A DNA stretch of 64,000 nucleotides from an uncultured Alphaproteobacteria bacterium (GCA_944389265.1 CALXLS010000005.1:22076-86075); one strand, 5' to 3'; positions 1 through 20,417 are shown, numbered from the stretch's first letter. The notes: generated by a model from the letters alone, not told the origin. A program made the numbers and translations.

Positions 1-509
1 CGCTAACTCGTCAAAGAAAACGCTTGGTTGTTTTATATAATGGAGATGTAAATTCTTTAAGAGCATTAAAAAACGACTCAAAATCAGATTTGTTAAACAG
101 GTATTCTAATTTATTTACAGAAGTCTGTGTTATAAATCGGTTAGGATATGACAAAGATGATGGGCGTAAACATAAAACAAAGTCTGGAATAATGGTTAGA
201 TCAAAATCAGAGGTTATAGTAGCAAATTTGTTAACAGATAATGGTATAGAATATGAATACGAAAAACCTTTAAAATTGATTGGACGTGAAACACCAATAA
301 AACCAGATTTTACGTTTAAGCATAAAGGGAAAACATATTATTGGGAACATTTAGGAATGATGGTATTGCGCGAATATCGGGATAAGTGGGAGAAAAAATT
401 AAAATTGTATCGTAGTAATGAAATAGAACCTATTGTAAGTGAAGACGGCGACAATGGTGATATTGATAGTAAAAAAATAGAAGAAACGATAAAACGTATA
501 TTGGCGTAA
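1..509 (+). CDS. PD-(D/E)XK (restriction-endonuclease-like) domain protein, probably 3' part of a gene running off the window start
   Basis: Reading frame is open from position 3, and the track ORF starts at TTG 24. The motif block RSKSEVIVANLL...IEYEYEKP...PDFTF...YYWEHLG resembles Vsr/DUF559-type nuclease cores. The gene is convergent with the Pif1 helicase gene. Confidence 0.4.
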   Translation, partial: LTRQRKRLVVLYNGDVNSLRALKNDSKSDLLNRYSNLFTEVCVINRLGYDKDDGRKHKTKSGIMVRSKSEVIVANLLTDNGIEYEYEKPLKLIGRETPIKPDFTFKHKGKTYYWEHLGMMVLREYRDKWEKKLKLYRSNEIEPIVSEDGDNGDIDSKKIEETIKRILA

Positions 510-617: not shown

Positions 618-1961
618 TTATTCGTTTCTTTTTTGTAGTTCTTCTAAGTAGATTTTTTCTTGGGATCCCAAAAAATTTTTAATATTTTCGTCTATATAAA
701 GATTATTGATTCCAAGCTTTTCTACTAAACATATATCTTTTACTTTATTAGTTCTACTTAATGCGACATACATTTGACCATGATACATTAACCCTGATGG
801 GTTTATTGTGACTTTAGATAAAGTTTGCCCCTGAGATTTGTTTACGGTTAGTGCATAAGCAAGTTTAAGAGGAATTTGTTTGTATAATGCATTAGGCGCG
901 GATTCTGTGACAAGGTTCCCATCTTTTTCTGTTATATCATAGCGTTCCCATTTAACAGGTTCGACTATATATATACCTCCTTTTGTTTTTACTTTAACAA
1001 ATTTCCCTTTCGGGCCTTGACCGAAACCTACCACCGTTCCCATAGTACCATTTTTCCAAGCACCACCACCAACATCGTTTTGAGTAAAAACAACTTTTGC
1101 ATTTATTTTTAGTTCCAAGAACATCGGTGAAGGATATTCTTCGGATTCTTGAGTGTTTTTTTTATTGGCAATTCGCCAGCCACAGTCAGTACCTATAAAA
1201 ACTTCTTTTTCTCCAGGTAAACTGCTTAAGCCTTGTTCATTTTTTTCGTCCACGATACTTCTTGTGCCAGCTATAAATATACCTTCTTTTTCATCTCCAT
1301 TTTTATAACAATTTTCATTAAAATAATCTACGGTTTCTTCTAAATCGAATTGGTATCTAATATGATTCAAATGAGTCCAGAAACTTCGTGCTTCTTTATC
1401 TCCTTTTTCGTCAAATTGTTGTCTATGTGGCATAAGTAATTCAACAAATTGAAATTTACCTTTTTTATATGCATTTGAATTGAAGAATAACGGCCATCTA
1501 TTTTTCCCGAATTCATCACCGTATCGCCTTTTTATATCATTGATTATATCATCTAATTTATCGTTATCGTTATAAAAAGACAAAACTTGATAAACATCAC
1601 CCGTTAACAAAACTTTGACGCCTCCGAACGGTTTCCAAGGAGTCTTCTTCGCCTTTTTTAATAAAGCGTCTATCGCGTCTAATATATCTGGTCTGACGTT
1701 CGATATTTCATCTATGATTAATAACTCGACACTTTTTAATTTTGAGGAAACAGGTATGCTTTCTAGATCTTTTTCTGTGATATATGGTGATGGAACCAAT
1801 TTAAAAAATGAGTGTATGGTGACACCTTTTACATTTAAAGCCGCCAATGCAGTAAATGCAACAACAACCGTGTTTGGGTGATTTCGTTCTATTGCCTCGA
1901 TTAAATAAGATTTCCCGGTTCCGGCTGCACCTTGTAAAAATAAATTTGTTTTTCCGGACAT
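618..1961 (-). CDS. Pif1/RecD-family (SF1B) DNA helicase
   Basis: Walker [10 protein letters not shown] near the N-terminus, Walker B LLIIDEIS, and C-terminal TVNKSQGQT motif typical of Pif1/RecD helicases. Length is 447 aa. Confidence 0.7.
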
Positions 1962-1968
1962 AACTTTA

Positions 1969-2616
1969 TCAAAAACATCCTTTTGAAAAAAAGTCTAGAT
2001 AAAATGGTTCGTTTGGGTTCTGTGGGTTGGGGACTTCATATATCAAGTCTTTTTTTTCTTTTATCAAATTAAGAACGGTTTTAAAAGTTTGTTCACCGTC
2101 AAACTCATTTTCTGTCTCGAATATATGGGCGGTTTGTTTTTTCTCTATGATGCCGTTCACCAAATCAAATTGATCACATACACTATCTAACGCCTCAAAA
2201 AAAGAATCTTTATCTAAATCTTCTATTTTCCACGCTTGTTTTACTAAATTACCTTCATATGAAGATTTAGATTTTGATGCCGATTGAATCCCCCATTTTT
2301 TTAAAAAGAACCCCATATTTTTAAAAGATACACCGTAACAAACCTCCAGCCATTGTTGGCCATTGAAATCTTTGTATAAATACACCGCAGGATACATTCC
2401 GTTTTTTAAAGTATTTTCGAAAGAGTCTACAGATTTTATAAAAGTAATATATGCTGTTTTTGGTGTGTTCTTATAGGGTTTCAGATTAAATACTAAATCA
2501 AAATCCCTGTACGTAGAACCTTCCCATATAGAAGAATTTACATTTCGACAAAAATTTCCTATAAAAAAACGCAAAAATAACCATAGTTGATCTTTATTCA
2601 TATTTTTACCTTGCAT
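1969..2616 (-). CDS. hypothetical protein co-transcribed upstream of Pif1-like helicase
   Basis: 215-aa ORF with 7-bp gap to the helicase start on the same strand. No recognisable motifs. Confidence 0.5.
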
Positions 2617-2980
2617 TTTTGAACATAAATAACGTGTGCTTAAATTGTCTCATACCCAATTGTTTTTTGCAACAATTAAAACGATAATTAGGTCGCGTCC
2701 AAATTTGGGGTATAGGTAGATTATAAATTAAGTGGATATATAACCAATACAAGAAAGGTAACTTTTCTTAAATATGATTTACTTTTTTTTATGTGTTTGG
2801 TATATATCTATTGTGGTTATATGAAGAAGGGTGACAACCATCTATAACTACTTAAATTTGTATAAGTGGTGCAGCTTTATCTGCATTGGGGTGCATACAG
2901 CCCAAGCTGATTGCCGTATTGACTCGTCATCAATCATAAAGGGTACGTTAAGCCCCTGCGCTATTTAAAAGGAGATTTTT

Positions 2981-3697
2981 ATGCCGAAAAAATATACTCG
3001 TCAGGAAACCCTAAACATTTTAGAGACAATGAAAAAAGAAGGTAAGGGATTTTCTTCTTTGTATAAAAAGGGTTTTATCAATTGGTCTGGTAAATCCATG
3101 GATAGAAGCAATTCAGAATACTATTCAGAAATTATATCAGATTGGTTATTAAATAATATGGATATATTAACTGGTAATCATATAAAGCAAGTAAACAGGG
3201 AGAATTATAAAGAATTTCATCCAGAACTAGATGAAAATACGCCGGCAACCAATCGTGAAGAAGAAAGAATCGCAAAAGAAATACATAAAGAAAAGGTTTA
3301 TAAAGAACTTGGTGAAGTTTTTGATTATCAGGTGCCTTTAAAAAAGACGAACAAAGATACTGGCGTAGGTAAGATAGACCTGGTTGCATTCAATAAAAAT
3401 GAAAACAATGTGTATTTGTTAGAGTTAAAAAGACGTGATAATTCTGAAACTTTATTGCGCTGCGTTTTGGAAATATATACATATTGGAAGCAACTTAATA
3501 AGGATAACTTTAAAAAGAGTTTCGACTTCCTACCATTAGATGCAAATATAATTCCTGCGGTATTAATTTTTAAAGATAGTGTACAATATAAGCAATATGA
3601 ATCAGAACATCCAAAGACAAGAAAACTTATGAAAGTATTAGGAATACAAACATTTGTTGTGACACAAGCAAAGTACACAATAGTTAAAGAGGATTAA
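2981..3697 (+). CDS. PD-(D/E)XK nuclease-like protein
   Basis: Motif GKIDLVAF-x10-VYLLELKRRD is a D...(D/E)xK signature. SD aaaaggag lies upstream. First gene of a 5-gene operon. Confidence 0.55.
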   Translation: MPKKYTRQETLNILETMKKEGKGFSSLYKKGFINWSGKSMDRSNSEYYSEIISDWLLNNMDILTGNHIKQVNRENYKEFHPELDENTPATNREEERIAKEIHKEKVYKELGEVFDYQVPLKKTNKDTGVGKIDLVAFNKNENNVYLLELKRRDNSETLLRCVLEIYTYWKQLNKDNFKKSFDFLPLDANIIPAVLIFKDSVQYKQYESEHPKTRKLMKVLGIQTFVVTQAKYTIVKED

Positions 3698-3698
3698 T

Positions 3699-3995
3699 AT
3701 GCGTATAAACAAGATAATTGTTGATAATATGGGCAATGTTTTTGCGCCTGTTGGTCGTGTTTCTGGCGGCTATGTGTATGACGACAGGGAAAGACTTATC
3801 GGAAGATATGTTGACGACAGGGTTGAATCTGTGAACAGACATATAATAGGTTTTGCCGCAGGTGGGGCGATTATGAACCCCGCAGGAAAGCAAGTTGCAA
3901 GATTAAATAATCGTTCTGAAATAGAAAGCAGCAAAACATTACGACCAGGGGAATATGCAGCAGTTTATAATTTTTTCTTCAAGGAGATAAAATAA
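3699..3995 (+). CDS. small protein with YD-like beta-hairpin repeats (GGYVYDDRERLIGRYVDD)
   Basis: 98-aa ORF, start 1 nt after the previous stop. Its repeat motif is shared with ORF 8515-8700. Confidence 0.45.
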   Translation: MRINKIIVDNMGNVFAPVGRVSGGYVYDDRERLIGRYVDDRVESVNRHIIGFAAGGAIMNPAGKQVARLNNRSEIESSKTLRPGEYAAVYNFFFKEIK

Positions 3996-4237
3996 TGGGG
4001 CGCAAAGTAAAATTACCAAATGGTGGCACCGTAGAGTGTGAAAGTTATCTTGGACCGACAGTTCATTGTTGTGCAACATGTCGTTTTTGGAATGGGTGTA
4101 GAATAATAGAAACCAACGGCAGTCATGTACTAGGTGTAGGGTTTGATAAAAGACAAAATCTTGGTGCATGTGGTGCAAAAAACAATGCCAGGGTTCCTGC
4201 GCGTTCGTCTTGTCCAAAATGGGTTGGTTTAAGGTAA
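3995..4237 (+). CDS. small Cys-rich protein (7 Cys, CCATCRFWNGC)
   Basis: 80-aa ORF. ATG overlaps the upstream stop (ataATGg), indicating translational coupling. Confidence 0.4.
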   Translation: MGRKVKLPNGGTVECESYLGPTVHCCATCRFWNGCRIIETNGSHVLGVGFDKRQNLGACGAKNNARVPARSSCPKWVGLR

Positions 4238-4250
4238 ATCAGGTGCGGCA

Positions 4251-5498
4251 ATGAAAATCTGTATATATCGTGGAACAAATGAAATCGGTGGAAACTGTGT
4301 AGAAATTGCAACAGACGCAACTCGTGTTTTATTCGATTTTGGGTTGCCTTTATCTTCGATGGAAGAAGAAGGGAAAAGTCTAACTGATTATAAAGTAAAT
4401 TGTTCGGGTATATATGCAGATGAAGAACCTTCTGTAAATGCTATTTTTATAACGCATAATCATCCAGACCATTACGGAATGCTTCCTTTAATTAATCCCA
4501 AAATTCCTGTATACATGTCGAAAACTTTACATGAAATACTGATAAAAATACAACCTTTGTTGCCAGGAAATTTTGATATATCGCATTTGGATATTCGTGA
4601 TGTTGATTCAGGCGAAAGTATAAAAATAGGGGATTTAACTATAACTGTACATCCAGTAGACCATGCACCAGCTGCGTGTGCTTATGAAATTTCTGACGGA
4701 AAGAAAAGAGTATTGTATACGGGAGATATCAGGTTTCATTCAAATCAAAGTTGGAAGTCATGGAAATTGGCGGACAAGGTCAAGAAGCCAGACTATCTGA
4801 TTATGGAAGGTACGCGCTTATCACGTACTGAGGCAAAAGAAAAATACCCGACCGAAGACGCAGTGTATAAACATCTGGTGCAAATTTTGCGTAATTCTGG
4901 GAAAGCAATATTTATAAGTTTGTCTTCTCAAAATTTAGACAGGTTGGTTTCTATGATTAAAGCATGCTTAGCAACTGGAAGGATTTTTGTAATTGACCCA
5001 TATACAGCGGCATTATTTGATATATTTCATGAATTGTCAGAAAGGGTGCCAACAGTAGAAATGGTTGATTGTGTAAAAATTTATTACGGTGGAAATCAAA
5101 AGATAGCAGAAAAAATGATTGCCAAAGGAATATTTAAGACACATAGCGCAAAAAAAATAACGATTGAAGAAATTGCAGAGTCCCCAGAAAAATATGTTAT
5201 AAAATATAATCGAACATTGATAAATTTGTTATTAAAGAACCAGATTAAAGATTACGATTTTATTTATTCTATGTGGCACGGTTATTTAGAAAGGAAGAAG
5301 ATTTGGGAACCATATAAAGAGCATTTAATAGAGGTACACACATCAGGTCATGCACAAGTTTCTGATTTGCAAGAATTTGTTAAGAAGATTTCTCCTGCCA
5401 AGATAATACCCATTCATACAGAATGTAAAGATAGTTATGCAGATGTTTTTTCTGCACCGATATTAAGTTTAAATGATAATGAACCAACAGAGGTATAA
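4251..5498 (+). CDS. metallo-beta-lactamase fold beta-CASP hydrolase, RNase J-like but lacking the RNase J C-terminal domain
   Basis: N-terminal EIGGNCVEI...VLFDFGLP...ITHNHPDHYG (HxHxDH) matches the RNase J pattern. C-terminal HTSGHAQ...IIPIHTE is beta-CASP motif C. Length 415 aa. Confidence 0.65.
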   Translation: MKICIYRGTNEIGGNCVEIATDATRVLFDFGLPLSSMEEEGKSLTDYKVNCSGIYADEEPSVNAIFITHNHPDHYGMLPLINPKIPVYMSKTLHEILIKIQPLLPGNFDISHLDIRDVDSGESIKIGDLTITVHPVDHAPAACAYEISDGKKRVLYTGDIRFHSNQSWKSWKLADKVKKPDYLIMEGTRLSRTEAKEKYPTEDAVYKHLVQILRNSGKAIFISLSSQNLDRLVSMIKACLATGRIFVIDPYTAALFDIFHELSERVPTVEMVDCVKIYYGGNQKIAEKMIAKGIFKTHSAKKITIEEIAESPEKYVIKYNRTLINLLLKNQIKDYDFIYSMWHGYLERKKIWEPYKEHLIEVHTSGHAQVSDLQEFVKKISPAKIIPIHTECKDSYADVFSAPILSLNDNEPTEV

Positions 5499-5500
5499 AG

Positions 5501-6907
5501 ATGAAAAAAGAAAAGACTAATCCAAGACTGCGTACAGGCGAATTTTCAAAAATAATAAAAAAGGGCAATCTGCAAGAAGTAAAAGATTTTATCGCAAATA
5601 GGGATTGTCTGGATATATTGGCACTAGATGAATATGGGCGAGATTCTTTATATGATGCAATTTTTACAGGAAATTTAGATATAGTAAAAGAGTTAATCGA
5701 CTATGGTTTGGACCCGAGTTTAGTTGATACTTCTACGGGAGTTGGTGCGTTGCATCTTGCTTCATCCGAAGGTCATTATAATATAGTGGAACATTTAATA
5801 AAAGTACATGGACTAAAAGTTAATCAGTTGGATAAAAAATATCGTTCTCCGCTGTACTATGCTTTATTGTTTATGGTTGAAAAAGGAAAAAATGGTAGAA
5901 TATATGTAAATCAAGAGAATCTAAAAATAGCAAAATTCTTGGTTGTCAACGGTGTAAAATTCCAAAAGAACCTACATACATTTCCTGTCGAAATGGGCGT
6001 TTTAGAAGAAGAATTAGTTCGTTATTTTCATCGTGGTAAAATTGAAGAAAATGCTAGGTGGAATTGTATCAACTTTTTAAAAGAAGATATAGCGGCTTAT
6101 GCTAGCGGAGAATATAAATATATAGAAGGATTTAAAAAAAATATATATAAGACACCAGAATTTCAAGATAAAAAGAATGTTTTGCCAATAGCACTTGGGT
6201 GGAAAATTAAAGAATGGGATTATAAAGCAGTTCGAGATAAATTTAATAAAGGCGAGCCAGAATTATTAAAAAAATCAGAAATTAGACCAATTGTTGCAGA
6301 TTTAGCAAAAATATCACCGCTTTTAATAAATTTAGGAGATACAGTAGAAGAAGAATATATGATTATGGATAATATATTTAATTCTATTATGCCAAAATAC
6401 GATGAAGATGCTTGCCAAGTGGTGTTTATAGACCCAATAGATAGGTGCTTTTTGCCAGTTTATAAAAGAGACGGCAGATTTCTGATGAATTCTGTTGACG
6501 ATATGAATACAGCAGTAGGCGCAATAAAAGCGCTTGTCGCGGAATCAGAATTTCGTGAAGGGTTATCCGAACAAAAATTGGCAGACAAAGCACCAATGGT
6601 TTGTGTAATAAATGATTTAACAGATATTATTGAATACGATAATAGCATAGAAGCAGATATGCAATATTTGATGATGCACGGGCAACACACAAAAATATAT
6701 TTAATTGTGCTTGTTAGGGACGGTACAAAAAAAGGTTTGTCTTCTTTATTGAAAGCGAATTTTTTGGCAAATATGCTATTTCATGCAAAAGCAACCAAAG
6801 AGCATAGAAATAATTTTAGAACAAGTTGTATGGAAAAACTTGGAAAGGGCGAGGCGCTTATCACCGTTTATTCGGAAATAGGATTAGGATATATAAAAAT
6901 CAAATAG
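5501..6907 (+). CDS. ankyrin-repeat protein with ~300-aa C-terminal domain of unknown function
   Basis: At least three ANK repeats at residues ~40-140 (GRDSLYDAIFTGNLDIVKELIDYG, GALHLASSEGHYNIVEHLI). Start is 2 nt after the previous stop. Confidence 0.6.
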   Translation: MKKEKTNPRLRTGEFSKIIKKGNLQEVKDFIANRDCLDILALDEYGRDSLYDAIFTGNLDIVKELIDYGLDPSLVDTSTGVGALHLASSEGHYNIVEHLIKVHGLKVNQLDKKYRSPLYYALLFMVEKGKNGRIYVNQENLKIAKFLVVNGVKFQKNLHTFPVEMGVLEEELVRYFHRGKIEENARWNCINFLKEDIAAYASGEYKYIEGFKKNIYKTPEFQDKKNVLPIALGWKIKEWDYKAVRDKFNKGEPELLKKSEIRPIVADLAKISPLLINLGDTVEEEYMIMDNIFNSIMPKYDEDACQVVFIDPIDRCFLPVYKRDGRFLMNSVDDMNTAVGAIKALVAESEFREGLSEQKLADKAPMVCVINDLTDIIEYDNSIEADMQYLMMHGQHTKIYLIVLVRDGTKKGLSSLLKANFLANMLFHAKATKEHRNNFRTSCMEKLGKGEALITVYSEIGLGYIKIK

Positions 6908-6909
6908 TA

Positions 6910-6942
6910 AAAATGTCGGATTTTTTATTCCGACATTTTTTG
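6910..6942. terminator. bidirectional rho-independent terminator
   Basis: Stem aatgtcgga/tccgacatt with T-rich loop, followed by T-run. Lies between convergent gene ends. Confidence 0.6.
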
Positions 6943-7245
6943 TTATATTTTATATCCAAATGCATTTAATTTATCACGCGCGATTTTCTTTTCGGTTTCG
7001 GTAAAAAGATCAGAGAATGCTTCTTCTAGAATAATATTTTCTATTGTTAAATCTAAACGTTTTAAAGACCATAGTTTATTAAAACCGGTAGATATGTTCT
7101 TGTTGTTTATAAGTGATTTACAGGTTGCTATTGCACCCTGGGTGTTTAACATTTGTGTCAAGTATGTCGGATTATATCCGATTTCTTTGGAATCAAATAT
7201 CATTTTTTGAATGCGTTGCATCAATTGTTCTTCTGTTGCTTTCAT
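6943..7245 (-). CDS. hypothetical 100-aa protein
   Basis: ORF only, convergent to the ankyrin-protein gene. No motif recognised. Confidence 0.35.
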   Translation of the reverse strand: MKATEEQLMQRIQKMIFDSKEIGYNPTYLTQMLNTQGAIATCKSLINNKNISTGFNKLWSLKRLDLTIENIILEEAFSDLFTETEKKIARDKLNAFGYKI

Positions 7246-7430
7246 ATCGTATTCCTCTAAACGTCAGATTTATATCATAAATAAAAAGTACGTAGTGTAA
7301 AGAATTTTCTGAAATAAAAATTTATAACAAGACCAAAAATGTCGTATTGGTTTAATAACATGAAAAAGTGAAATATTGCCAAAAAATTTAATATATGGTA
7401 AATTAACTATAAATAAGGGGTTAATACATC

Positions 7431-8408
7431 ATGCGGGATAATTATAATCGATTATATGAATTATACGATTTTATCAATGAATTACGCAGTCGTACTTTTT
7501 CTGGTATGTCATACGAAGAAATAATGGTTCATTTTGGGTGGTCCAGAAAGACCACTGAAAGAATGCTGAATGTTCTAAAAACGCTTTTTGGTGACGGGTT
7601 AACATATGATTATATTGATGATGGCAGCCGCAGAAAATCTTATAAATTGGTTATAAAAGACCTTAATAAATTACCTTTAAATTTTATATCCGAAGAAGAT
7701 TTGATAAATTTAAAAACTGCAGCAAAGATTTTAACAAATGATTCAAATGTATCTGGTGGGTTATCTCGGCTTGCGTCTAAATTAGGTACAATAAATTTAA
7801 AAACGGAAAATAATGCAGAAGATGTTGCAGGGGCGACAAGTGCAGTTGCTATACCAGGTCCAAGGTTGAATATCGATAATGGTATTATCGGTGCTTTACA
7901 AGAATCTGTCCAGAGTTTTAAGCAGGCAGAAATTGAATATAATGGTAGAAAGCGCGTTGTGTGTCCATTAGGGTTTTTATATGGTATAAGAAATAATTAT
8001 TTAATCGCGGCCAATAAAAGATACATTTCTAGTCCGGTAAAGTATAAATTGTGTGATATAACGTCCGTAAAAGTTTTAGACAACTTTTTTGATGCGGAAG
8101 GTTTTGATATACATAAATATTCTATAAGGTCTTTCGGAGTTTATTCTGGGAAAGAAGACGGTTATGATATAGAATGGCTTGTAAAGAAAGAAGCAGCGCA
8201 GGATGCTAAAAAATATATATTTCATTCTACACAACAAATGATTGAAAACGAAGATGGTACTTTAACGATAAAATTTCATGCGGATGGCTTAAGAGAAATG
8301 GCATGGCATTTGTTTACTTGGGGTGGAATGATTGTGCCCATAGCACCTGCAGAACTGGTTACAGAATATAAAAATTATATAAAATTAGCGCAAGAATCAT
8401 TAAAATAA
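7431..8408 (+). CDS. WYL-domain transcriptional regulator (BrxR/CapW-like, wHTH-WYL-WCX)
   Basis: N-terminal wHTH (SYEEIMVHFGWSRKTTERMLNVL). Central WYL-like core (YLIAANKRYISSPVKYKLCDITSVKVL). 325 aa is typical for this family. SD aaggggt upstream. Confidence 0.6.
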   Translation: MRDNYNRLYELYDFINELRSRTFSGMSYEEIMVHFGWSRKTTERMLNVLKTLFGDGLTYDYIDDGSRRKSYKLVIKDLNKLPLNFISEEDLINLKTAAKILTNDSNVSGGLSRLASKLGTINLKTENNAEDVAGATSAVAIPGPRLNIDNGIIGALQESVQSFKQAEIEYNGRKRVVCPLGFLYGIRNNYLIAANKRYISSPVKYKLCDITSVKVLDNFFDAEGFDIHKYSIRSFGVYSGKEDGYDIEWLVKKEAAQDAKKYIFHSTQQMIENEDGTLTIKFHADGLREMAWHLFTWGGMIVPIAPAELVTEYKNYIKLAQESLK

Positions 8409-8423
8409 GCATCAGAAAAATAA

Positions 8424-8452
8424 AAAGCACCTGTTTTTACAGGTGCTTTTTT
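8424..8452 (+). terminator. rho-independent terminator after WYL regulator gene
   Basis: agcacctg-tttttac-caggtgct hairpin followed by TTTTTT. Confidence 0.65.
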
Positions 8453-8514
8453 GTACGTCCAAAACTGTCGCATATACTACCTAGATTATGATTGTAGATA
8501 AAAAGGAGACTTAA

Positions 8515-8700
8515 ATGGCGATTTCTACGGCAGTACAAAGGGGTAGTTGGGTTTACGTATATAATGAAAAAGGAGCATATCTTACAAGCCTAAGCGGTCA
8601 GTTGTATGGTTTTACTTCTTCAACTGTATCGGTAAAGCGAAACAATTGGGTTTATGTTTATGACGAACACGGAGGTTATGTTTCTTCTTTTTCTTGTTAA
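8515..8700 (+). CDS. 61-aa protein made of two WVYVY(D/N)E-G-Y repeats
   Basis: Good SD aaaaggag 8 nt upstream. Internal duplication RGSWVYVYNEKGAYLTS / NNWVYVYDEHGGYVSS. Confidence 0.45.
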   Translation: MAISTAVQRGSWVYVYNEKGAYLTSLSGQLYGFTSSTVSVKRNNWVYVYDEHGGYVSSFSC

Positions 8701-8724
8701 TTTATAAAAACTAAGGGCGCGCAC

Positions 8725-9009
8725 ATGAAACTAGATTTTGAAAAATATTTATCGGATGTAAAACTTAATAAAAAACGTAATTTCTCAAAGAGAAGCATAG
8801 AATCATATTCTAGGAATGTTCCAGAGTATTTAAGAGATAAGTTTAGTGTCAATCTTTATAGCATTTCAGAGCCAAAAGAAGCACAAGACTTGTTAGATAG
8901 ATTGAATAAGAACTCGAATTTTTTAAGGGATGACACAGTTGGTAAGCATATGTATTCGTGTGGAATAAAACGATACATCGAGTTTTTAACGTGGTTGCAA
9001 ATGCAGTAA
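8725..9009 (+). CDS. hypothetical 94-aa protein
   Basis: ORF in operon position between the repeat protein and the AAA+ gene. No confident motif. Confidence 0.4.
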   Translation: MKLDFEKYLSDVKLNKKRNFSKRSIESYSRNVPEYLRDKFSVNLYSISEPKEAQDLLDRLNKNSNFLRDDTVGKHMYSCGIKRYIEFLTWLQMQ

Positions 9010-9056
9010 TAGAAAAACATTATCGCACGAAAAACTTGTAAAACCGGGAGATATAT

Positions 9057-11051
9057 ATGAAGCAACAAGATGTCATATTATTTTATTTAAACAACATATC
9101 CAAAAGAGAAATAACAAAACGATCGGCATCAGAAATACTAGAGTTTGCCGAGCAAGAATCTGAATTTTTATGGGGACATCCTTTTGATGACATGTGGTTT
9201 CCTAGTAATGAACGGGAAGCCAAAACAAAAGATTTAAAAATCTTGCGTTCGATATTAAAAAATACAGAAATCAAAGATATTTATCTGCCTGGTCAAGATA
9301 AGGTTATTGATTTGATATTAGAAGCATTTTCATTAGAAGAAAAATATCGTCCAATATTAACGCTTGTTGTTCATATGATAAGATATGTCAAACTTCGTCG
9401 TCTTGTGGGCGAGGTTTCTGGCAGTCGCAGACCTGTGTTGAACACAAATTATATGGAATATATTTCTAAGTTTTGTGGAGTTCGTGAAAGTGAGCTAAAT
9501 AAAACATTGGATTGTAATTCGGCATTATTGCGTTGCGGAATAATTAATGTTGATTTAGATGGGGACTTAGATTTGTCCAATGTCGTGCAAAAAGTTCTTA
9601 GTGCAGGGAATATTAAAAATAAGAACGATGTAAAAAAATATATATTACGCGAATCCAGGAAAACGAAACTTACCGCAAAAGATTTTTCTCATATCCAAGA
9701 TGAATTTTCTTATATAGGAAAAATCTTATCGAGTGCCACAAATAATAAGGTACCAGGTATAAACATTTTAATATATGGTGACATTGGAACAGGTAAAACA
9801 GAATTTTCTAGGGCATTAGCCAAAAGTTTAGGTTTAACTTTATATGAAATGGGAGGTGAGCCTGGTAAACAGAGAAGGGAGTCCAGTCTACAAGACCTAT
9901 GTGTTGCGCAATCTTTATTGATGAAAGATAGAAGTTCTTTATTGCTTATGGATGAAGCAGAGGATGCATTAACAAAATCGGGACCATTTGATAATAGTTC
10001 TTCTAAATTATCAATTAATCGTACGCTAGAATTAAATCCAGTTCCTGTGATATGGATTGTAAACAGTATATCTGGGATAGACAAATGTTATCTGCGCAGA
10101 TTTACATATTGTTTAGAATTTCATAAACCAGAAACAGAGCAACGAAAAAAAATATGGAAAAGAGTTTGCGCAAAACACTCTGTTTGCATATCAAAAGAAG
10201 AAATATCCGAACTTGCTAATAAATATGATGTTGCACCAAGTATAATTAATGCAGCGATTTTAAATAAGTCATTGTCTGGGCAAGAAGATGCAGTCAGCAG
10301 AACAATAAAATCACTTAGTGCAGTAATTTCTGGTGATGTAAAAGCAGACAAAAAATCTGAAGAATTAAATGATTTTAATTCTCAGATATTGAATACGGAT
10401 ACAGATTTAATTTTGCTTGCTGAAAAGTTATCAAAAGGCATAGAAAAGAATTTTTCTTTATGTCTTTATGGTGTTGCGGGAACGGGTAAGTCTTTATATG
10501 CCAGATATTTAGCAGAAAAGTTAGGTATGAAAGTTATACAAAAACGAGCCAGCGATTTAAGCAGTAAATATATCGGTGAAACGGAAAAGAATATAGCGAA
10601 CGCCTTTCGCGAAGCAAAGACGGAAAATGCCATATTAGTTTTCGATGAAGCGGATAGTTTTTTAGGTTCGCGTGAAAATGCAAACAAGCCTTATGAAATA
10701 TCGTCAGTCAATGAAATGTTAACTCATATGGAAAGTGCAGAAACGCCATTTATTTGTACAACAAATTTGATGACGAATATAGATAAAGCAGCGTTGCGAA
10801 GATTTACATTTAAAGTAAAATATGATTACCTAACAACGCGGCAAGTCAAACTGGCATATCGACATTTCTTTGGTGCAGATATATCAGCAGGCAGCGCAGA
10901 AAATCTGTTATATTTAACACCAGGTGATTTTTCTGTGGTACGAAAAAAGTCGAAAATATTGGGTATTACTGACAGTACAGAAATAATAAAGATGTTGAAA
11001 GATGAAATGGCTGCCAAGGGTAAAATTATAAAACCTAAAATAGGCTTTTAG
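9057..11051 (+). CDS. tandem AAA+ ATPase (two classical AAA modules) with ~230-aa N-terminal domain
   Basis: Module 1 has Walker A GDIGTGKT, Walker B LLLMDEAED, and second region of homology ending CYLRRF. Module 2 has Walker A GVAGTGKS, Walker B ILVFDEADS, and TTNLMTNIDKAALRRF. Confidence 0.7.
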   Translation: MKQQDVILFYLNNISKREITKRSASEILEFAEQESEFLWGHPFDDMWFPSNEREAKTKDLKILRSILKNTEIKDIYLPGQDKVIDLILEAFSLEEKYRPILTLVVHMIRYVKLRRLVGEVSGSRRPVLNTNYMEYISKFCGVRESELNKTLDCNSALLRCGIINVDLDGDLDLSNVVQKVLSAGNIKNKNDVKKYILRESRKTKLTAKDFSHIQDEFSYIGKILSSATNNKVPGINILIYGDIGTGKTEFSRALAKSLGLTLYEMGGEPGKQRRESSLQDLCVAQSLLMKDRSSLLLMDEAEDALTKSGPFDNSSSKLSINRTLELNPVPVIWIVNSISGIDKCYLRRFTYCLEFHKPETEQRKKIWKRVCAKHSVCISKEEISELANKYDVAPSIINAAILNKSLSGQEDAVSRTIKSLSAVISGDVKADKKSEELNDFNSQILNTDTDLILLAEKLSKGIEKNFSLCLYGVAGTGKSLYARYLAEKLGMKVIQKRASDLSSKYIGETEKNIANAFREAKTENAILVFDEADSFLGSRENANKPYEISSVNEMLTHMESAETPFICTTNLMTNIDKAALRRFTFKVKYDYLTTRQVKLAYRHFFGADISAGSAENLLYLTPGDFSVVRKKSKILGITDSTEIIKMLKDEMAAKGKIIKPKIGF

Positions 11052-11054
11052 ATA

Positions 11055-11090
11055 AAAAACGGTAATAAATTTATTACCGTTTTTTATTTT
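11055..11090. terminator. bidirectional terminator (12-bp palindrome acggtaataaat/atttattaccgt)
   Basis: Perfect palindrome flanked by A-run and T-run, between convergent genes. Confidence 0.6.
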
Positions 11091-11773
11091 AACCCGGAAA
11101 TTTCTTGTTGCATATCGTCAAAGAATTGTTGCATTCTTTTTGCGCGTTGCGTAGCAATTTCTTTCCCGGTTTGTGTAAACATTCTGTCTGGTACATTTAA
11201 ACTTTTTATCATGAATTCCAAGTTAGGCGCATGCTTTTTCATATCTTTTATTTTACCAGAAGATACACCACCAGATAGGTTGGTTTTTATATAATCATTT
11301 ATATCACAATCACAGTACATGCACATATTATGCTCGCCAGCAAACATATACGCTCGGGCTATTCCTATATTCCCCAAAGTGTCTATTTTATCTGCATCAA
11401 AAAGAATTTTTGCTTCTAATGATTTAGGTTCCATGCCACTGCGAAATCTGTGAGTTTTTATTGCTTCGGATACTTTGTCTGCAAAATCTTCAGAAACGCC
11501 GAGATTTAATAAAATTTCTTTTGCCTGACGTGCACCTAAAATAGCGTGGTCACCTTTATCGCCAAGTGCGACATTTTCTTTCGGACGTGCGATGTCATGT
11601 AAAATTGCTGCCGCACGCAGAATATCCATATTTGCTGTATCTGCAAACTCTGTTTCGGCAATTTTTATACAGTTATTGTATACTCTTAAGGTATGTGCAA
11701 AGTCATGAGAAGATGTATTTAATTCTGACTTAACAATTTCTATTAATTTATCAAACATATCTTGTTCCTTCAA
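11084..11773 (-). CDS. HD-domain phosphohydrolase
   Basis: H...HD motif (FAHTLRV ... AAILHDIARP) and a later D. Confidence 0.6.
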   Translation of the reverse strand: MKEQDMFDKLIEIVKSELNTSSHDFAHTLRVYNNCIKIAETEFADTANMDILRAAAILHDIARPKENVALGDKGDHAILGARQAKEILLNLGVSEDFADKVSEAIKTHRFRSGMEPKSLEAKILFDADKIDTLGNIGIARAYMFAGEHNMCMYCDCDINDYIKTNLSGGVSSGKIKDMKKHAPNLEFMIKSLNVPDRMFTQTGKEIATQRAKRMQQFFDDMQQEISGLK

Positions 11774-13965: not shown

Positions 13966-13997
13966 ATTTAAACGCCCCTTTTGGGGGCGTTTTTTTT
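13966..13997. terminator. GC hairpin terminator downstream of giant gene
   Basis: aaacgcccctttt gggggcgttt followed by an 8-T run. Confidence 0.5.
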
Positions 13998-16900
13998 ACC
14001 ACATTGTGTATCCTTCTTTACATGTACGGACGCACTTCTTTTTCGCTTGATCCCAAACCATTGTACCAGTTTCGTCTTCGTATTCTTCTTGAGGACAGAT
14101 AGGTACACATTCGTTGTTATCTAGGTTATAAAGTTCTCCTTGATACAAGCATGCGGCAATTTCACAACCTTGAACATAACTGCTTGCAGCTAATTGTCCA
14201 AGAACACTGTATTTATTTTTGCACTCGCCGCATTGTTTTGTGCGTTCATTTGTTTCTGATGGATCATTTGTATATCCTGGGTCACAAGATGTTGCGATAC
14301 ATTTACCCCAGTTCTTGGACGCATGATTCCATTCTTTGAACCCTATACCGTTCTCAACTGTGCAAGGTTGAATATCCGATACGCATGCGTTAGAAGCCAA
14401 ATGATATTCAGATTCACACTCTTTTATCATGCAAGGTCCGAACGCATTCAGGTTATAATCCCACTTTTGTTCAGCATATATTGCATTAGGAGCAGAGCAT
14501 TCTGTTATATCTTTTTCACATGCTCTTCCGTTTGGATGATAACCCAGTACGCATGTTGCTACCTGGCAAACACCTGTTTCCTTATAAGATAGAGCAAACT
14601 CTACATCACAAGGTTCGCACTTGCCGTTAATCATTTCATAGCCCCCGTTGCAAGATATTTCTACGCAAACATCGTCTACGATTTCGCAAGGGTTACCTGT
14701 ATCAGATACACCTTTAAATTCGCATTCATTAGGATAGAAGGCTTTATCATTTACAGGTACAGCCGTACCATTTTCTACCTTATATTCTTCGCACTTTTGA
14801 TAGCATCCACTTTCATCTTTTGCACCTGGCAGCGAGAATTCCCAAGAACCGTCACCTAGGTCTGCGCAAGATTTAACATCGCTACCTGGTTCATCTGGAT
14901 CTGTTTCACCGTCACAGAAACTTCCTTCTGGGCATTCTGTGCAGATTCCGTTCTCTAATGTATATCCTGCCAAGCATCTTGCAATTTTACATGTGTCAGG
15001 TGCTTGATAATAGTCACGACCAGACATTGCCGCAGCATTTTCTGCTATTGCACAATCTTTATAGCACATTGCTACATCTGTTGTGCCTGCGTCTGATTCT
15101 GGGTATTGACCACCAGTTAAAGAAGAACATGTTTTTTGTTCGCCTTCTTCGCAGACGCTTCCTGCAGGGCAATTGATGCAAGTATTGTCTACCTGAGAGT
15201 ACCCTTCATCGCAAGATACGACAGTACATGTTTGACAGCTTGCTGTATAATCAGAATCTGACTCATTGTAATGACATGTTTTCTCACCAGAACCGTTTGC
15301 AATTGGGCAAACGATATCTTCTCTGAAACATTCTGTTATTGCAGAACTTGTTTTTGTTGCTGTTATACCGTTCTGAGGGCACTGGAATCTGGATGTGTTA
15401 ACCGCAGGGCTATAATATCCGATACCAGCTTCTATACAGTCATCTACCTTTTTAATCTTGTCATAGTAGTAGCCTGCATCGCAACTTGTCATGGTTGGTG
15501 TTTCACAACTTGATGCATAGATTGCAGATGTGCCTTCACCACTTGTATAGTAGCATAGATATTCGCCAGTACCATGTAATGCTTCTGTATATGGCAGACC
15601 GTCTTTATAGCACAGACTGATACTATCTGCGATATCACTTTCTGTCTTACCGTTATTTGGGCATTCATGACGTTCTATATCGTCTGGGTCGCTATAGAAA
15701 TTCTGAGTGACCGGTGAACAGTCTGTATCAGAACTTTCTTCTAGCCAGTATCCACCACGACAACTATTTATAACTTTAGTATCGCAATCGCGTTGGTATA
15801 TAGCATCTGCACCAGTACCACTAGAGTAGAAACATCTCTGAGTACCTGTTCCATAAATTGCCGTGTAAGGTAAGTTTTCTTTATAGCAATTCTGAACCAT
15901 TGTAGAAGTATCTGTTTCTGTTAACCCGCTGCTTGGGCACTGTGTACGGCTTGTACCTGAACCGTCACTGTAGTATCCCTTGCCGACGACTTCACAGTCA
16001 GGTGTTTCTGCACCTGCGTCTGCTAGGTAATAACCTGCGTCACAGATGTTTATGACTTTATCAGTACACTGTGCAGAATAATCACTTGATGTCTGATTAT
16101 ATTGACATGTCTGAGTACCACTACCATGAGTCGCTGTATAAGGCAACTTAGTCTTATAGCACTTTGTCACAGAATCAGTACCACTAGGTGATGAACCTTG
16201 TTCTGGACAAACGTTCATACCTTCTGCGTGACCGCTATCTGTTGCGAACGAACCACCAGGGCAGTAATTATTTGCTGGACATTGTGTGCACTGAGTACCA
16301 GTTCCTGGATAATATGTACCTGGTTGGCATGTTGTTTTACCTGCCGCCCATCTTACATATATTGTTGCAGGTGACTTTGTTGTCATAGTTAACGCTTCTT
16401 CTGAGGTCTGGAATTCACCGTTTGCATTAATAATCTGTGTTCCGCCAGTTGAAGCAGAGTAGTATCCTGCCAGTTCGTAACTAGATTTGGTTGGCAACTT
16501 AGTCATTTTTGATATAGATGTTGTTGCACCAGAGTTGCTAAACCAACCTGTTGCATATTTCAGATAAACTGTGCTTGGTTCACCTGGAACATCCGAACCT
16601 GTATTATCTAAGTTTACAGTATAAACATTAGGTGTCCATACTGCATACAATGTTGTGTCAACACCTGTCGCAGATATATTAGTTGCTATAGATGTACCCG
16701 CATCATAGCATGGTGAACCACCATTTTTATCGGAACACCATTTTGCGACAACTGTATATCCGGCACGTGTCAAACCAGTTGTTGCAGGTAATTGACAACT
16801 GCCACTATTAAATGTGCATTTTACACTTGCAGCGACAGAACCTGCACCACCATTCTTATCCAGAGTAATTGTATACTCATTTGCTTTACATGATGGTTTT

Positions 16901-19900
16901 TCTGTATTGTTGGATTGTACTGTATAACCCGTTTCACAAGTCACAGCGAATGAGCATGCCGCATATGCGCTTGCGCTTATACCATAAACAGTATTTTCTT
17001 TCGCTGCAATAGAAGTAGAATTCGGTATTTCTATTTTACATTCTTTATAGCAGTCTGTGAAATTATCTGCGTATTCAGAAGATTCTACTTTTGAACCATT
17101 TGGGTCTACAGGACACGCAGTTTGGTCTGTGTCGTTTTCTGGGCTGTAATATCCGCTTGTAACGCCACTGCACAAGAATGCATTTGGTGTACTGTACCAA
17201 TAACCAGCCTTACAACTTTTTACTTCCAGTATGCTGCATCTTTCATATTTTTTGCTGCCTTCTATATAGAAGCACTTTGCTGATGCCACACCATTTTGGA
17301 AGCCTGAATAAGGGTCAAATACCTTATAGCATTCTGTTACATAAGTTGCACCACGTTCAGAAGTACCACCGTCTGGGCAGGTAATAGGACCAGAACCATC
17401 TTCTGGACAGTAAGAACCTGCTGGACACTCATTTGGATCGCCCCATACACAAGACGGATTTGTACTTGGGCTGTTTTCAGGAACATAATTTTCGTTACAT
17501 TCAGCACGATATTGACATTCTGGATACTTAGAACCGTCGTAATACTGATTTCCTGTTGACACGCCTTGACCGTTTTCAATGTCTAATGTTGGTGGGCATG
17601 TTTTATAACAGTCAGTAATATCACCAGAACCTGCTTCAGAAGTACCGCCTGCTGGGCATTCGTGTTCAATACCTTCTTCACAGTAAGAGCCTTCTGGACA
17701 TTCTTCTGGTTCTGTCTCTTCAGAGCCACCAGGGCAGTTAACACCGTCTTGGCACTTATTACATGTTGCATTTGCAGTACCGTTACCAGATGCAACATAT
17801 CCAGGATTACAATTTACATTATATGTACATGCTGGGTATGAAGAACCGTTATAGTAAACTTTTGCACTTACAACAGTTGCTGTACCGCCTGTAATGGTTT
17901 TGCCACCACAAGTTTTATAGCATCCTGTAGCCGCTGTTGAACCTGTGTCAGAACCATTATATCCAGATGGACACGTTGTTGAGCATCCTGCTTGCCCGAT
18001 ATTTGCAAAACCTGTACCTGGGCAGAAAGAACCAGAAGGGCAATCTACATGACTTGTGCCATTATAATATTTCCCTGCTTGACATTGTGTCGTCTGTTGT
18101 GACCAACAAGCATACATAGTTTTTGCAGATGTGAATGTTGTCTGGTATACGCCACTTGTGCAGCCAGAAGATTCACCCCAACCAGTAAATGAATAGCCTG
18201 TTTTTGTTAGACCGCTTGAAGGCAAATCACACAAAACGCCATGCTTGCACTTTTGTGTTGCATTTGCAGTACCAGACGAACCATTTATAGAGCCTGTACC
18301 ACCATTTTTGTTAAGGGTTATGGTATATTCGTCAGGTTCACAACTTCTTCCATCTGTTGATAGATGATAGCCTGGGTTACATTCAAATGTTTCACCACCA
18401 CCAGGGCATGTCGCATTAGGTACGCACGCAGCACATCCACTACCAGAGATGTAGTAGTCTTCTTTACATTGTGTCGCTGCACAAGTTTTTGTTCCACCTT
18501 TTGTTACTGTACCTGTAACTGCGGATGCATTTGGAACATCACTTGTCGTACAATCTCTATAGCAGATGCTATTTGTCTGAGATTTACATACATCATAAGT
18601 ACCTTTTGTAAATCCTGATACACTGCTACAAGAAACACTACAGTTTGAACATCCTGAACCATTTGGGTATTGTGTTGCACTACATCCGCAAGTGCCGGCA
18701 CCATCAGTATTCATGGAACATGCTGTCCATTGTGCAGTAAATGTAATATCTTTTGTATAAGTCCAAGTTATTTGTCCAGGTTGTTTAATTGTGGAGCCAT
18801 CATTCCAACCAGCAAAAGTATAACCTGGTTTTGAACATGTGTTAGATGCAATTACATAAGAACCACCATATTGCTGTGATGTACCACCTGGTGCATTACC
18901 GCTGCCAGTACCGCAAGAGTATGATACTTCATAAGTGTTTGGAATACATGTATCACCACTCTTCTGATAACCTGTTTCGCAAGTAAAGGTCATAGAGCAG
19001 GTAGGTGCAGTTGCACTACATGTTGTCGTTACCTGGTTCATAGTACCACTTGCTGTTTCTGAACCGAAATTACATGTTGCGGAATGTTCTGGGCAAGTAG
19101 GCTTCTTACAAGCAACTGTACAAGATTTGGTACATTGTGTTGCCGATGTTGCGCCTGCTGGTGACGAATATCCTGATTCACAAGCAGGGCAGGTTATACC
19201 ACTACTATAGTGATTAGCAGAAGCGGTCACCCCAGTAATAGGTTTATTACAATTATTAGGTGTACAATCTGACACAATAGTACCACTATATTTCTTTGTG
19301 TACGTACAACTACCAGGAGAACAAGTTCCTGTTGTTATACTGCTGCACCCAGAAGGAGTGGCTGGCGGTTGCTGTGTACCAGTTTTAGTAAATTCACCAA
19401 CGCATTCATTTATAGAACTAGCACCAGTTCCGTCACGATAACCTGATGGACATTGAGGGCAAGCAGCTCCATTTACGTAATATCCAGAATTTGCGGTTAC
19501 ACTTTTTATAGTTTGTTGGCAAGATGCATTATTTGTACTACATCCACTTTTTATAGTGCCGTCACCGGTTCCAGCAGAGTTAGAATATGCAACATATTCA
19601 CATGATGGATTTGAACACGTATTACACTGTACTGACGCGCAGTTAGATGGTTTTGTGCAAGAAGTTTGACTGCCTGTCCATGCACGTTGCTTTGTATTAC
19701 TATAACAGTCAGTTATTGCATCAGAACTAGTTGCAGAATTTGGATAACTACTTGGACAAGTGTTTATGCCTTGGTCACTTGAACTTGGGGTAAAAGTTCC
19801 ACCTTTACAGTAAGAACCAGCGGGACATGCTGTACATGATGTTGCGTTCGCTTTTAAATATGTTCCCGCAGAACATGTCACAGATGCTAGAACACATGTT

Positions 19901-20208: not shown

Positions 20209-20309
20209 CTTAGAAAAAATAGTATATATCGTGCAAGAGAAAAAATAAAATTAAAGCAATAAAATAAAAAAATAATAAAAAAATACACGCAAATGCGTGC
20301 ATATTTTGT

Positions 20310-20387
20310 GGTGGGTTAGGTAGGACTTGAACCCACGACCAAAGCGTTATGAGCGCTCCGCTCTAACCAACTGAGCTACTAACCCAC
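20310..20387 (-). tRNA. tRNA with CAU anticodon (Met or lysidine-type Ile2)
   Basis: Cloverleaf derived by hand: acceptor GUGGGUU/AACCCAC, anticodon loop CUCAUAA, T-loop GGUUCAAGUCC. Anticodon stem and T-arm resemble tRNA-Ile2 more than elongator Met. No encoded CCA. Confidence 0.75.
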
Positions 20388-20417
20388 GGCGAGCATTATA
20401 TATGTATTTTAAAATAT

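Follow-up and report, generated by a model that had tools for sequence, protein, structure and literature searches.

A candidate WYL-regulated defence module pairing a PD-(D/E)XK nuclease with a short beta-CASP metallo-beta-lactamase in an uncultured alphaproteobacterium

A compact nuclease operon lies near one end of a 64,000-nucleotide stretch of DNA from an uncultured Alphaproteobacteria bacterium (GCA_944389265.1, CALXLS010000005.1:22076-86075). We refer to this whole stretch as the window and count positions from its first letter. An earlier note on the window, made from the sequence alone, had described five open reading frames (ORFs) spaced by -1 to +13 nt. This description is accurate: the five genes, here called A to E, form a single, co-oriented and tightly coupled operon in which the intergenic gaps A/B, B/C, C/D and D/E measure +1, -1, +13 and +2 nt, and a Shine-Dalgarno-like sequence precedes every one of the five starts. 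The operon consists of the following features.

A, 2981-3697, plus strand: PD-(D/E)XK nuclease, 238 aa
B, 3699-3995, plus strand: beta-hairpin-repeat protein, 98 aa
C, 3995-4237, plus strand: Cys-rich protein, 80 aa, 7 Cys
D, 4251-5498, plus strand: short beta-CASP metallo-beta-lactamase nuclease, 415 aa
E, 5501-6907, plus strand: ankyrin repeats and FtsK-like P-loop domain, 468 aa
Terminator, 6909-6940, both strands: bidirectional intrinsic terminator with a 12-bp stem and U-tracts on each side, at the end of operon A-E

Two of these genes encode nucleases with intact catalytic sites. The motifs that had been pointed out in them, IDLVAF...LLELK in A and HNHPDH, HTSGHA and IPIHTE in D, are all found and are conserved among homologues. 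Protein D was proposed to be an RNase J-like beta-CASP metallo-beta-lactamase (MBL) without the RNase J C-terminal domain, and the sequence comparisons agree. MBL motifs 1-4 and beta-CASP motifs A-C, by which beta-CASP MBLs are recognised, are complete, and D29, H69-x-H71-x-D73-H74, H138, D159, D181/E186, H363 and H389 are invariant across 37 homologues. The Pfam families Lactamase_B_2 (E = 6.7e-18) and RMMBL (E = 3.1e-8) are both matched above their gathering scores. The best named-family matches are RNase J and aCPSF1, and several homologues are labelled ‘ribonuclease J’ by JGI. Against the RNase J model TIGR00649, D scores 61.3 bits where the cut-off is 400, and against RnjA (NF047419) it scores 59.8 bits where the cut-off is 820. 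It aligns to positions 3-388 of the 546 in the RNase J profile, and the C-terminal dimerisation domain is missing. The closest entry in the PDB is 2az4 (EF2904, uncharacterised; E = 2e-39), with RNase J at E = 3e-22 and Apollo, SNM1A and Artemis at E = 1e-8 to 1e-4. A histidine at beta-CASP motif C is the signature of RNA-type enzymes, and D has this histidine. By these scores D is not RNase J, and the annotation ‘ribonuclease J’ on these ~410-aa proteins is misleading; D likely has 5'-end-dependent exo- and endonuclease chemistry. The family has more than 1000 members, of 400-440 aa, and D is the sole beta-CASP protein within the window. EF2904 was dropped as a functional guide to D, as that subfamily lies in ABC-transporter operons. 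One such EF2904-type gene, at 4977-6266 of an E. coli plasmid record (L141, OL539428.1), sits in an ABC-transporter operon that includes a 2',3'-cyclic-nucleotide phosphodiesterase; the content of this record is Enterococcus-like though it is labelled E. coli.

Protein A had been read as a PD-(D/E)XK protein, which its invariant residues and predicted fold both bear out. D133, E148 and K150 are invariant in an alignment of 48 homologues, and in an AF2 model (pLDDT 91.6) they fall on strands E131-138 and E143-150. Foldseek matches are weak, with a best E of 4e-3 against the PDB and 4e-4 against BFVD, and all are PD-(D/E)XK proteins: Upx, XisH, Can2 and SduA in the former, MmcB-like and RecB-family proteins in the latter. 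On this predicted fold and motif A belongs to the PD-(D/E)XK superfamily, within a family that carries no name. It matches no Pfam, NCBIfam or PADLOC family (the only PADLOC match, 12 bits and E = 0.0085, is at chance level), and every one of its 331 homologues is annotated as hypothetical. These homologues span at least five phyla; their sources among metagenome-assembled genomes are Alphaproteobacteria, Bacillota, Spirochaetota and Nitrospirota. A variant layout occurs in L064, L065, L068, L074 and L081 (L numbers denote loci of our comparison set), where A lies between two opposite-strand MBL genes and is followed by proteins with an FtsK-gamma-like winged helix and DnaE-like fragments.

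The two nucleases travel together. A metagenome scan anchored on an 11-sequence alignment of A returned at least 80 loci, 32-44% identical to the A of the window, which fall into 42 groups at 90% identity; 21 of these groups have at least 2.5 kb of downstream sequence. Among the loci listed, D lies within 3 kb of A in 17 of these 21 dereplicated groups, often with a 4-nt overlap between the two genes. When loci are anchored on D instead, hidden Markov models (HMMs) detect A or another PD-(D/E)XK family, N2, in 18 of 25, and in four more the adjacent protein carries a D...ExK motif. Together these counts indicate that the invariant core is a pair of nucleases, A or N2 plus D. Co-occurrence of the five genes in other genomes had been put forward as a check, and its outcome divides them: the A-D pair co-occurs widely, while B and C are missing from most A-D loci and the core is without ankyrin in most lineages. 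A scan of genome contigs with the MBL alignment contributed two true family members, L012 and L013, among the matches listed. The core is found in Alphaproteobacteria, Bacillota, Bacteroidota, Spirochaetota, Nitrospirota and Verrucomicrobiota, in metagenomes from gut, rumen, sediment and soil, and the relatives include free-living genera such as Rhizobium, Prevotella, Butyrivibrio and Sphingomonas. For the window itself an alphaproteobacterial lineage is indicated by homologues in named metagenome-assembled genomes, by an RpoD with a non-essential region and by GcrA beside a 63% homologue.

The pair is also mobile. Its chromosomal neighbours differ in every clade, no synteny is shared between loci, and copies occur on plasmids as well as on viral contigs of IMG/VR. 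Genes of defence islands recur beside it: CBASS genes (SMODS, patatin) inside a recombinase- and terminase-bearing element, Eco57I-like restriction-modification genes and a GIY-YIG nuclease on a Rhizobium plasmid, two DUF262 genes on a Prevotella plasmid, and HNH, restriction endonuclease, methyltransferase and Vsr genes on viral contigs. The operon of the window itself neighbours a remnant of PDC-S68. The claim that this combination is not a known operon has held up, for it is absent from PADLOC and undescribed in the searchable literature, where the nearest topics are CRISPR type VII, CoCoNuT, Apyc1 and Avs2-trypsin-MBL.

Around this core, the closest relatives preserve much of the window's gene order. 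The five-gene set A-E recurs in L007 at 97-100% protein identity, and A-B-C-D recurs in L043-L046 at 78-96%; this recurrence argues that the arrangement did not come about by chance. In L043-L046, whose D is 78% identical, the order is WYL regulator, Ank219, leader, A, B, C, D and an active FtsK332. In L042 and L047 gene A has been deleted, and an upstream 574-aa ankyrin protein carries an N2 PD-(D/E)XK domain (HMM E = 2e-117). Ankyrin and FtsK modules are present in every locus where D is 58-98% identical, and beta-flower-like small proteins are present in the window clade and the L004 clade.

Protein E belongs to these modules. It had been described as an ankyrin protein with a C-terminal domain of some 300 aa and no assigned identity. 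The ankyrin repeats are there (residues ~20-125), and the C-terminal domain (residues ~215-468) can now be named as an FtsK-like P-loop motor domain, its profile matching the FtsK motor structures 2ius (E = 4.4e-12) and 2iuu (E = 5e-10). It aligns with the FtsK_SpoIIIE proteins that occupy the equivalent position in sister loci, and E also has weak phrog_3551 and NF007615 FtsK matches. In place of the Walker A sequence GQTGSGKS and the Walker B sequence VIDEFA of those active proteins, E has GDTVEEEY and VINDLT. This degenerate P-loop is kept in all five homologues, at 29-70% identity, and thus E looks like a stable pseudo-ATPase rather than a case of recent decay. The homologue set comes from sequences taken from the loci, together with the PDB profile, in place of a full-length search, which returned three true homologues amid ankyrin proteins. 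The ankyrin repeats score 21-30 bits against the Legionella Dot/Icm Ank effector models of NCBIfam, whose cut-offs are at least 500, and PADLOC models match E through these repeats only. As a side observation, L042 and L047 encode ankyrin repeats fused to an active FtsK (1818-3239, 473 aa) and also ankyrin repeats fused to the N2-type nuclease (4682-6406, 574 aa), so that three different ankyrin fusions, counting E, occur in a single clade.

The tiny proteins of 98 and 80 aa (the latter with 7 Cys) are conserved, as the earlier note had supposed. Between the window and L043, B differs by 31 synonymous and 15 non-synonymous codons at 85% protein identity, and C by 26 synonymous and 3 non-synonymous codons; this synonymous excess indicates that both are real genes. 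No protein of the operon is better conserved than C, which reaches 96% identity in loci where D has 78%, and the cluster of C at 90% identity occurs on hundreds of contigs. Among 1.84 billion representatives searched there are just four genuine homologue clusters of C, of 67-78 aa, which share the motif C...CxxC...W.G.R...C...CxKW. C has no Pfam match, and its single-sequence AF2 model (pLDDT 40) is unusable; this Cys-rich protein probably binds zinc. Membership of B in the beta-flower group was measured against PF21784, PF21785 and PF21786 (Pfam CL0395). B matches Bflower_2 with 28.1 bits (E = 1.9e-6), under the gathering score of 38, and probably has the beta-flower fold. No function is known for the 5-fold beta-flower, whose description dates from 2023 (PMC10584680). 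The L004 clade has an analogous repeat protein of 97 aa (Bflower_3, E = 0.005) ahead of A-D. B and C, and likewise D, have no meaningful match in PADLOC-DB 2.0 at E <= 0.1.

Comparison with L007 also locates the edges of the conserved block. DNA homology to this locus, whose D is 98% identical, is limited to window positions 2695-6917 and 7423-11371. These limits leave the Pif1-like helicase, the 215-aa gene beside it (618-2616) and an AATTGTT palindrome unlinked to the operon, and they imply that a WYL-WCX regulator, proteins of 61 and 94 aa and an AAA+ ATPase (7431-11051) travel with it. The Pif1 pair had been put forward as a divergently transcribed partner; in L007 homology begins at window position 2695, with other genes upstream. 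Judged by this alignment, the Pif1 pair and the palindrome are incidental and lie outside the conserved block. The five-gene boundary has likewise proved too narrow, since the WYL-WCX regulator, the 61-aa protein and the AAA+ ATPase recur with A and D in distant loci, and the module probably comprises more than five genes. The downstream genes are as follows.

Regulator, 7431-8408, plus strand: wHTH-WYL-WCX protein of the BrxR/CapW type (Pfam WCX, PADLOC WYL)
d3, 8515-8700, plus strand: beta-hairpin-repeat protein, 61 aa, 98% identical in L007
d4, 8725-9009, plus strand: 94-aa protein, 99% conserved with L007, of uncertain membership in the module
AAA+ ATPase, 9057-11051, plus strand: double AAA+ protein, Cdc48/IetA-like, 664 aa (PHROG, PADLOC, Pfam AAA)

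The regulator has the domain architecture of the winged helix-turn-helix (wHTH)-WYL-WCX family. It exceeds the Pfam gathering score for WCX (33.7 bits against 23.9) and falls short of the one for WYL (16.3 bits against 21.8), both of which the homologues in L013 and L086 exceed; over residues 150-317 it matches the PADLOC WYL model with 59.8 bits. The gene lies directly after E in L007 and upstream of the operon in L043-L046 (61% identity), and it adjoins D in L012, L013, L086, L088, L094, L140 and L142. It probably encodes the regulator of the module. [quoted passage not shown]

Prevotella plasmid pE2-28 carries a 55-aa homologue of d3 (46% identity), placed opposite a WYL gene and immediately before its D homologue. 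We note that this segment of the plasmid (L140, 3219-9733) has the WYL gene divergent from the 55-aa protein, the MBL and a metallophosphatase, with the two DUF262 genes adjacent and an annotated ‘5-fold beta-flower protein’ 3 kb away. The 94-aa protein d4 has no family match above noise and was not found in the distant loci. The AAA+ ATPase matches PHROG 10401 (E = 2e-97), Pfam AAA and, through one of its domains, PADLOC IetA (120 bits). Homologues stand next to A-D in L086, L094, L134 (in the order AAA-A-D-WYL) and L142, and 5-7 kb away in L012, L045 and L046. This protein is the probable ATP-dependent component of the module.

Several further features of the window lie around this block. 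Upstream, a remnant-like 161-aa ORF (24-509, plus strand) corresponds to the C-terminal end of PDC-S68, a PADLOC candidate (E = 9e-46), and the minus-strand pair at 618-2616, a Pif1/Dda-like helicase and the 215-aa gene, is not kept beside the operon in the closest relative. Between the two blocks shared with L007, 6918-7422 is an indel that holds a 100-aa reverse-strand ORF (6943-7245) for which no family was found; it is without a counterpart in L007, yet it is present after E in L048. Farther downstream, 13996-21752 holds a 2070-aa Listeria-Bacteroides-repeat protein in a block of GC 0.42 (elsewhere about 0.33), then a tRNA-Met (20309-20385) and a second Pif1-like helicase (20418-21752), and this stretch may be an island boundary.

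Upstream of A, the divergent region quoted as 365 bp exists (2617-2980) and measures 364 bp. The palindrome AATTGTT-TTTTGC-AACAATT reported within it is present as well (2658-2677); its proposed operator role was rejected, as it lies outside the block conserved with L007. The leader, described as GC-richer, is indeed so (GC 0.43 against ~0.33). Two features of this region fall within the conserved block.

Promoter-proximal box GCGTCCAAATTTGGGGTATA, 2695-2714, plus strand: holds the perfect palindrome CCAAATTTGG (2699-2708)
Leader, 2807-2962, plus strand: non-coding candidate structured RNA of ~150 nt, between the promoter region and A

The box GCGTCCAAATTTGGGGTATA is identical in all eight aligned loci while its flanks have diverged. 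It marks the start of homology to L007, and it occurs a single time per locus in the window clade. We infer that it is a candidate operator or promoter element, and a better candidate than the AATTGTT palindrome. Autoregulation of the WYL gene via the same box was also considered and rejected, as CCAAATTTGG is not repeated upstream of that gene.

The leader has a 5' motif, AGGGUGRCAACC, a core of the form UGCAUYGGGG-N-ACAGCCCAAGCUG...CGURUUG..UCG..UCAAYC and a terminal hairpin. Between the window and L043 it is 88.5% identical over its whole length (2807-2962) and 94% identical over the core (2860-2962), compared with 78-81% nucleotide identity in the coding sequences. Two 1-nt indels between the same sequences shift the reading frame of the core, which argues that the leader is non-coding; a small ORF inside it was rejected as the frame differs between clades. 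The leader is kept in L042 and L047 as well; with gene A deleted, it lies directly upstream of B. A covariance model, R1, finds divergent copies solely upstream of A in L061, L062 and L144. There the leader consists of two tandem copies (5400-5591 and 5689-5910 in L061), and the distal one ends in a strong intrinsic terminator. Searches with nhmmer and cmsearch across all 144 loci place the leader in three sequence types and two clades. Comparison of the window and L061 with the Rfam 15 covariance models gave nothing relevant at E <= 10, and an exact-pattern scan of viral contigs gave no matches. RNAalifold structures are unstable and show at most two covarying pairs in the core, and the fold z-score of the leader is only -1.4; because three sequence types supply insufficient covariation, the leader remains a candidate structured RNA.

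We propose, with moderate confidence, that the operon is the window's version of a mobile, WYL-regulated, nucleic-acid-degrading module for defence against phages or plasmids. It is the spread of the core on plasmids, prophages and defence islands among unrelated bacteria that argues for a candidate defence system and against both a housekeeping RNase and an effector of a symbiont. Also in its favour are the co-occurrence of two nucleases with intact catalytic residues, the recurrent WYL-WCX regulator, the resemblance of the FtsK-like partner to the FtsK-type domains of SspH and mad8, and the precedent of MBL nucleases as immune effectors. Linkage, catalytic sites, mobility, genomic context and domain identities come from the comparisons above, while the mechanism that follows is a proposal. 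Hypothetically, in an uninfected cell the wHTH-WYL-WCX repressor, probably together with the 5' leader RNA, would hold expression low. Infection or DNA damage would then lift repression, by analogy with CapW and DriD, which sense single-stranded DNA; the derepression step is modelled on CapW and BrxR (PMC9122588, PMC11662680, PMC9122601). Once expressed, the PD-(D/E)XK enzyme would cut internally and the beta-CASP enzyme would degrade the products from their 5' ends, the target being DNA, RNA or both. Lineage-specific accessories, namely the ankyrin and FtsK-like modules, the AAA+ protein, the beta-flower protein, the zinc-type 80-aa protein and the 61-aa repeat protein, may tune targeting or assembly, and B, C and the leader may act as regulators. 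Since its Walker motifs are dead, the FtsK-like domain of the window could serve only as a scaffold or nucleic-acid binder, which would leave ATP-dependent work to the AAA+ protein.

A more speculative extension, which we regard as improbable, is that the leader represents a structured RNA of a new class which, as a riboswitch-like sensor or as a trans-acting subunit, gates or partners the nuclease pair, with the dead-FtsK/ankyrin protein as a nucleic-acid-binding scaffold. The option of a trans-acting subunit comes from the free-standing leader copy with its own terminator in L061. If this were true, the module would be an RNA-controlled immune system of an undescribed kind.

Several observations weigh against the defence hypothesis. 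Some loci, in small genomes, have an apparently ordinary chromosomal context (L001, L010, L061 and L144). PADLOC-DB 2.0 has no model for A-D, as would be expected if the system were new, and the N2 family and the small proteins have no match there. The AAA+ protein is tied to A-D by adjacency, and in some clades only; the roles proposed above for the AAA+ protein and for B, C, d3 and E are conjectural; and WYL regulators also control DNA-damage responses.

That last point leads directly to a repair module, in which a WYL regulator of the DriD/PafBC type would induce the PD-(D/E)XK enzyme, a beta-CASP exonuclease and an FtsK-like DNA-binding factor. Beta-CASP enzymes include repair nucleases, with precedents in SNM1/Artemis and in ligase-associated exonuclease systems, and D does match Apollo, SNM1A and Artemis. 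WYL regulators sense single-stranded DNA and control damage responses outside the SOS system (PMC10853764, PMC12041258), some of our loci lie among housekeeping genes, and one BFVD fold match of A is to an ‘MmcB-like DNA repair protein’. However, D groups with the RNA-type beta-CASP enzymes by its RMMBL domain and motif C histidine, and RNase J and CPSF far outscore SNM1. The distribution is patchy and horizontal, without synteny and with copies on plasmids and viral contigs beside restriction-modification, CBASS and DUF262 genes, and such turnover of accessory genes is rare in repair genes, so we consider the repair hypothesis unlikely. Somewhat more doubtful still is an addiction module akin to toxin-antitoxin or abortive-infection systems, in which the nucleases would be toxins restrained by B, C and d3 or by the leader RNA and the whole would stabilise its carrier element. 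Small, strongly conserved proteins translationally coupled to nucleases, carriage on plasmids and prophage-like elements, and the tandem leader with terminator of L061, which loosely recalls the RNA antitoxins of type III toxin-antitoxin systems, would all suit it. However, the absence of B and C from most A-D loci means that they cannot be the obligatory antitoxins of the core, and the leader, present in two clades only, is a single or double element of about 150 nt in contrast to a short multi-repeat type III array. Mechanistically, moreover, addiction overlaps with defence instead of excluding it.

Two further alternatives seem to us highly improbable. If D were the housekeeping RNase J gene (rnj) and its neighbours unrelated passengers, then the JGI labels, the RNase J and aCPSF1 matches, the RMMBL domain and the motif C histidine would all be accounted for. 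The scores speak otherwise (61 bits against 400, and 60 against 820 for RnjA), as do the missing C-terminal domain, EF2904 as the closest structure and the occurrence of D on plasmids and viral contigs. The earlier note had named a sole, syntenically conserved rnj with unlinked flanks as the outcome that would overturn its proposal; the loci instead share no synteny, their neighbours vary from clade to clade, and it is the nuclease partner that is co-conserved. The same note had also suggested an effector/immunity module of the symbiont; we take this as an effector/immunity or host-interaction module in which the ankyrin protein would be secreted. The repeats do resemble the Legionella Dot/Icm Ank effectors, at the level of the repeats only. 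In this clade, however, ankyrin repeats are fused to cytoplasmic enzymatic domains (dead FtsK, active FtsK and the N2 nuclease), most lineages of the core have no ankyrin, relatives include free-living genera, and there are no secretion-system genes in the module. This leaves the symbiont hypothesis unsupported, given a core that spans phyla, plasmids and viral contigs and ankyrin repeats that are joined to intracellular domains.

If confirmed, the defence hypothesis would add a widespread system, with an MBL family of more than 1000 members and a partner nuclease family of more than 300 across several phyla, and an effector of the beta-CASP/RNase J type working with a PD-(D/E)XK enzyme. To our knowledge, type VII CRISPR and the trypsin-MBL modules are the only settings in which beta-CASP/RNase J chemistry is known to serve immunity. 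Orphan families would gain functions as well, namely the nucleases of families A and N2, the Cys-rich protein of 80 aa and the beta-flower proteins; the module would in addition offer a natural case of ankyrin repeats joined to an FtsK-type pseudo-ATPase, and its leader a possible new motif of regulatory RNA.

Each of the parts falls in a known superfamily, and a regulator combined with nucleases and an ATPase in a defence island follows a familiar logic. As far as these tools tell, what is undescribed is this specific combination, together with the two orphan families of nuclease partners, the Cys-rich and beta-flower proteins, the FtsK pseudo-ATPase with its ankyrin fusion, and the leader. 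With RNase J and the EF2904-like nucleases (PDB 3zq4, 2az4) D shares the MBL and beta-CASP core, the RMMBL domain and the motif C histidine. It differs from RNase J in having no C-terminal dimerisation domain, in scoring far under the cut-offs, and in being mobile and paired with a PD-(D/E)XK nuclease, and unlike D the EF2904-type genes lie in ABC-transporter operons. In the MBL effector modules, both the trypsin-MBL genes found with Avs2, HamAB or Ago and the Cas14 of type VII CRISPR, an MBL-fold nuclease is the destructive effector; trypsin-MBL with Avs2 is thus a precedent for MBL nuclease effectors in immunity (bioRxiv 10.64898/2026.08.25.746987). The present module has no trypsin, STAND or Cas partner. 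Cas14 is likewise a beta-CASP protein, but D scores 22 bits against it where the cut-off is 800, and there is no match to the AVAST models of PADLOC.

Of the two ATPases, the double AAA+ protein recalls IetAS (Gao_Iet). One of its domains is IetA-like, with 120 bits in PADLOC and 105 bits in NCBIfam against a cut-off of 510; however, the protein has a second AAA+ domain, and 7431-11051 holds no IetS protease, so that IetAS itself is not what lies here. The FtsK/HerA-type defence ATPases (SspH, mad8, Sir2-HerA) likewise place a hexameric P-loop protein beside nucleases, and the FtsK332 of the sister loci matches SspH of SspFGH with 144 bits and mad8 of MADS with 82 bits, whereas E of the window, joined to ankyrin repeats, no longer has Walker A and B, and the module includes no other Ssp or MADS gene. 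As for the islands controlled by BrxR and CapW, the genes regulated here are not BREX, CBASS or any catalogued system, and the candidate 10-bp palindrome is shorter than the BrxR repeats of 10-11 bp x 2. What the module does share with those islands is the architecture of the regulator beside an effector operon, a palindromic promoter box and a defence-island context.

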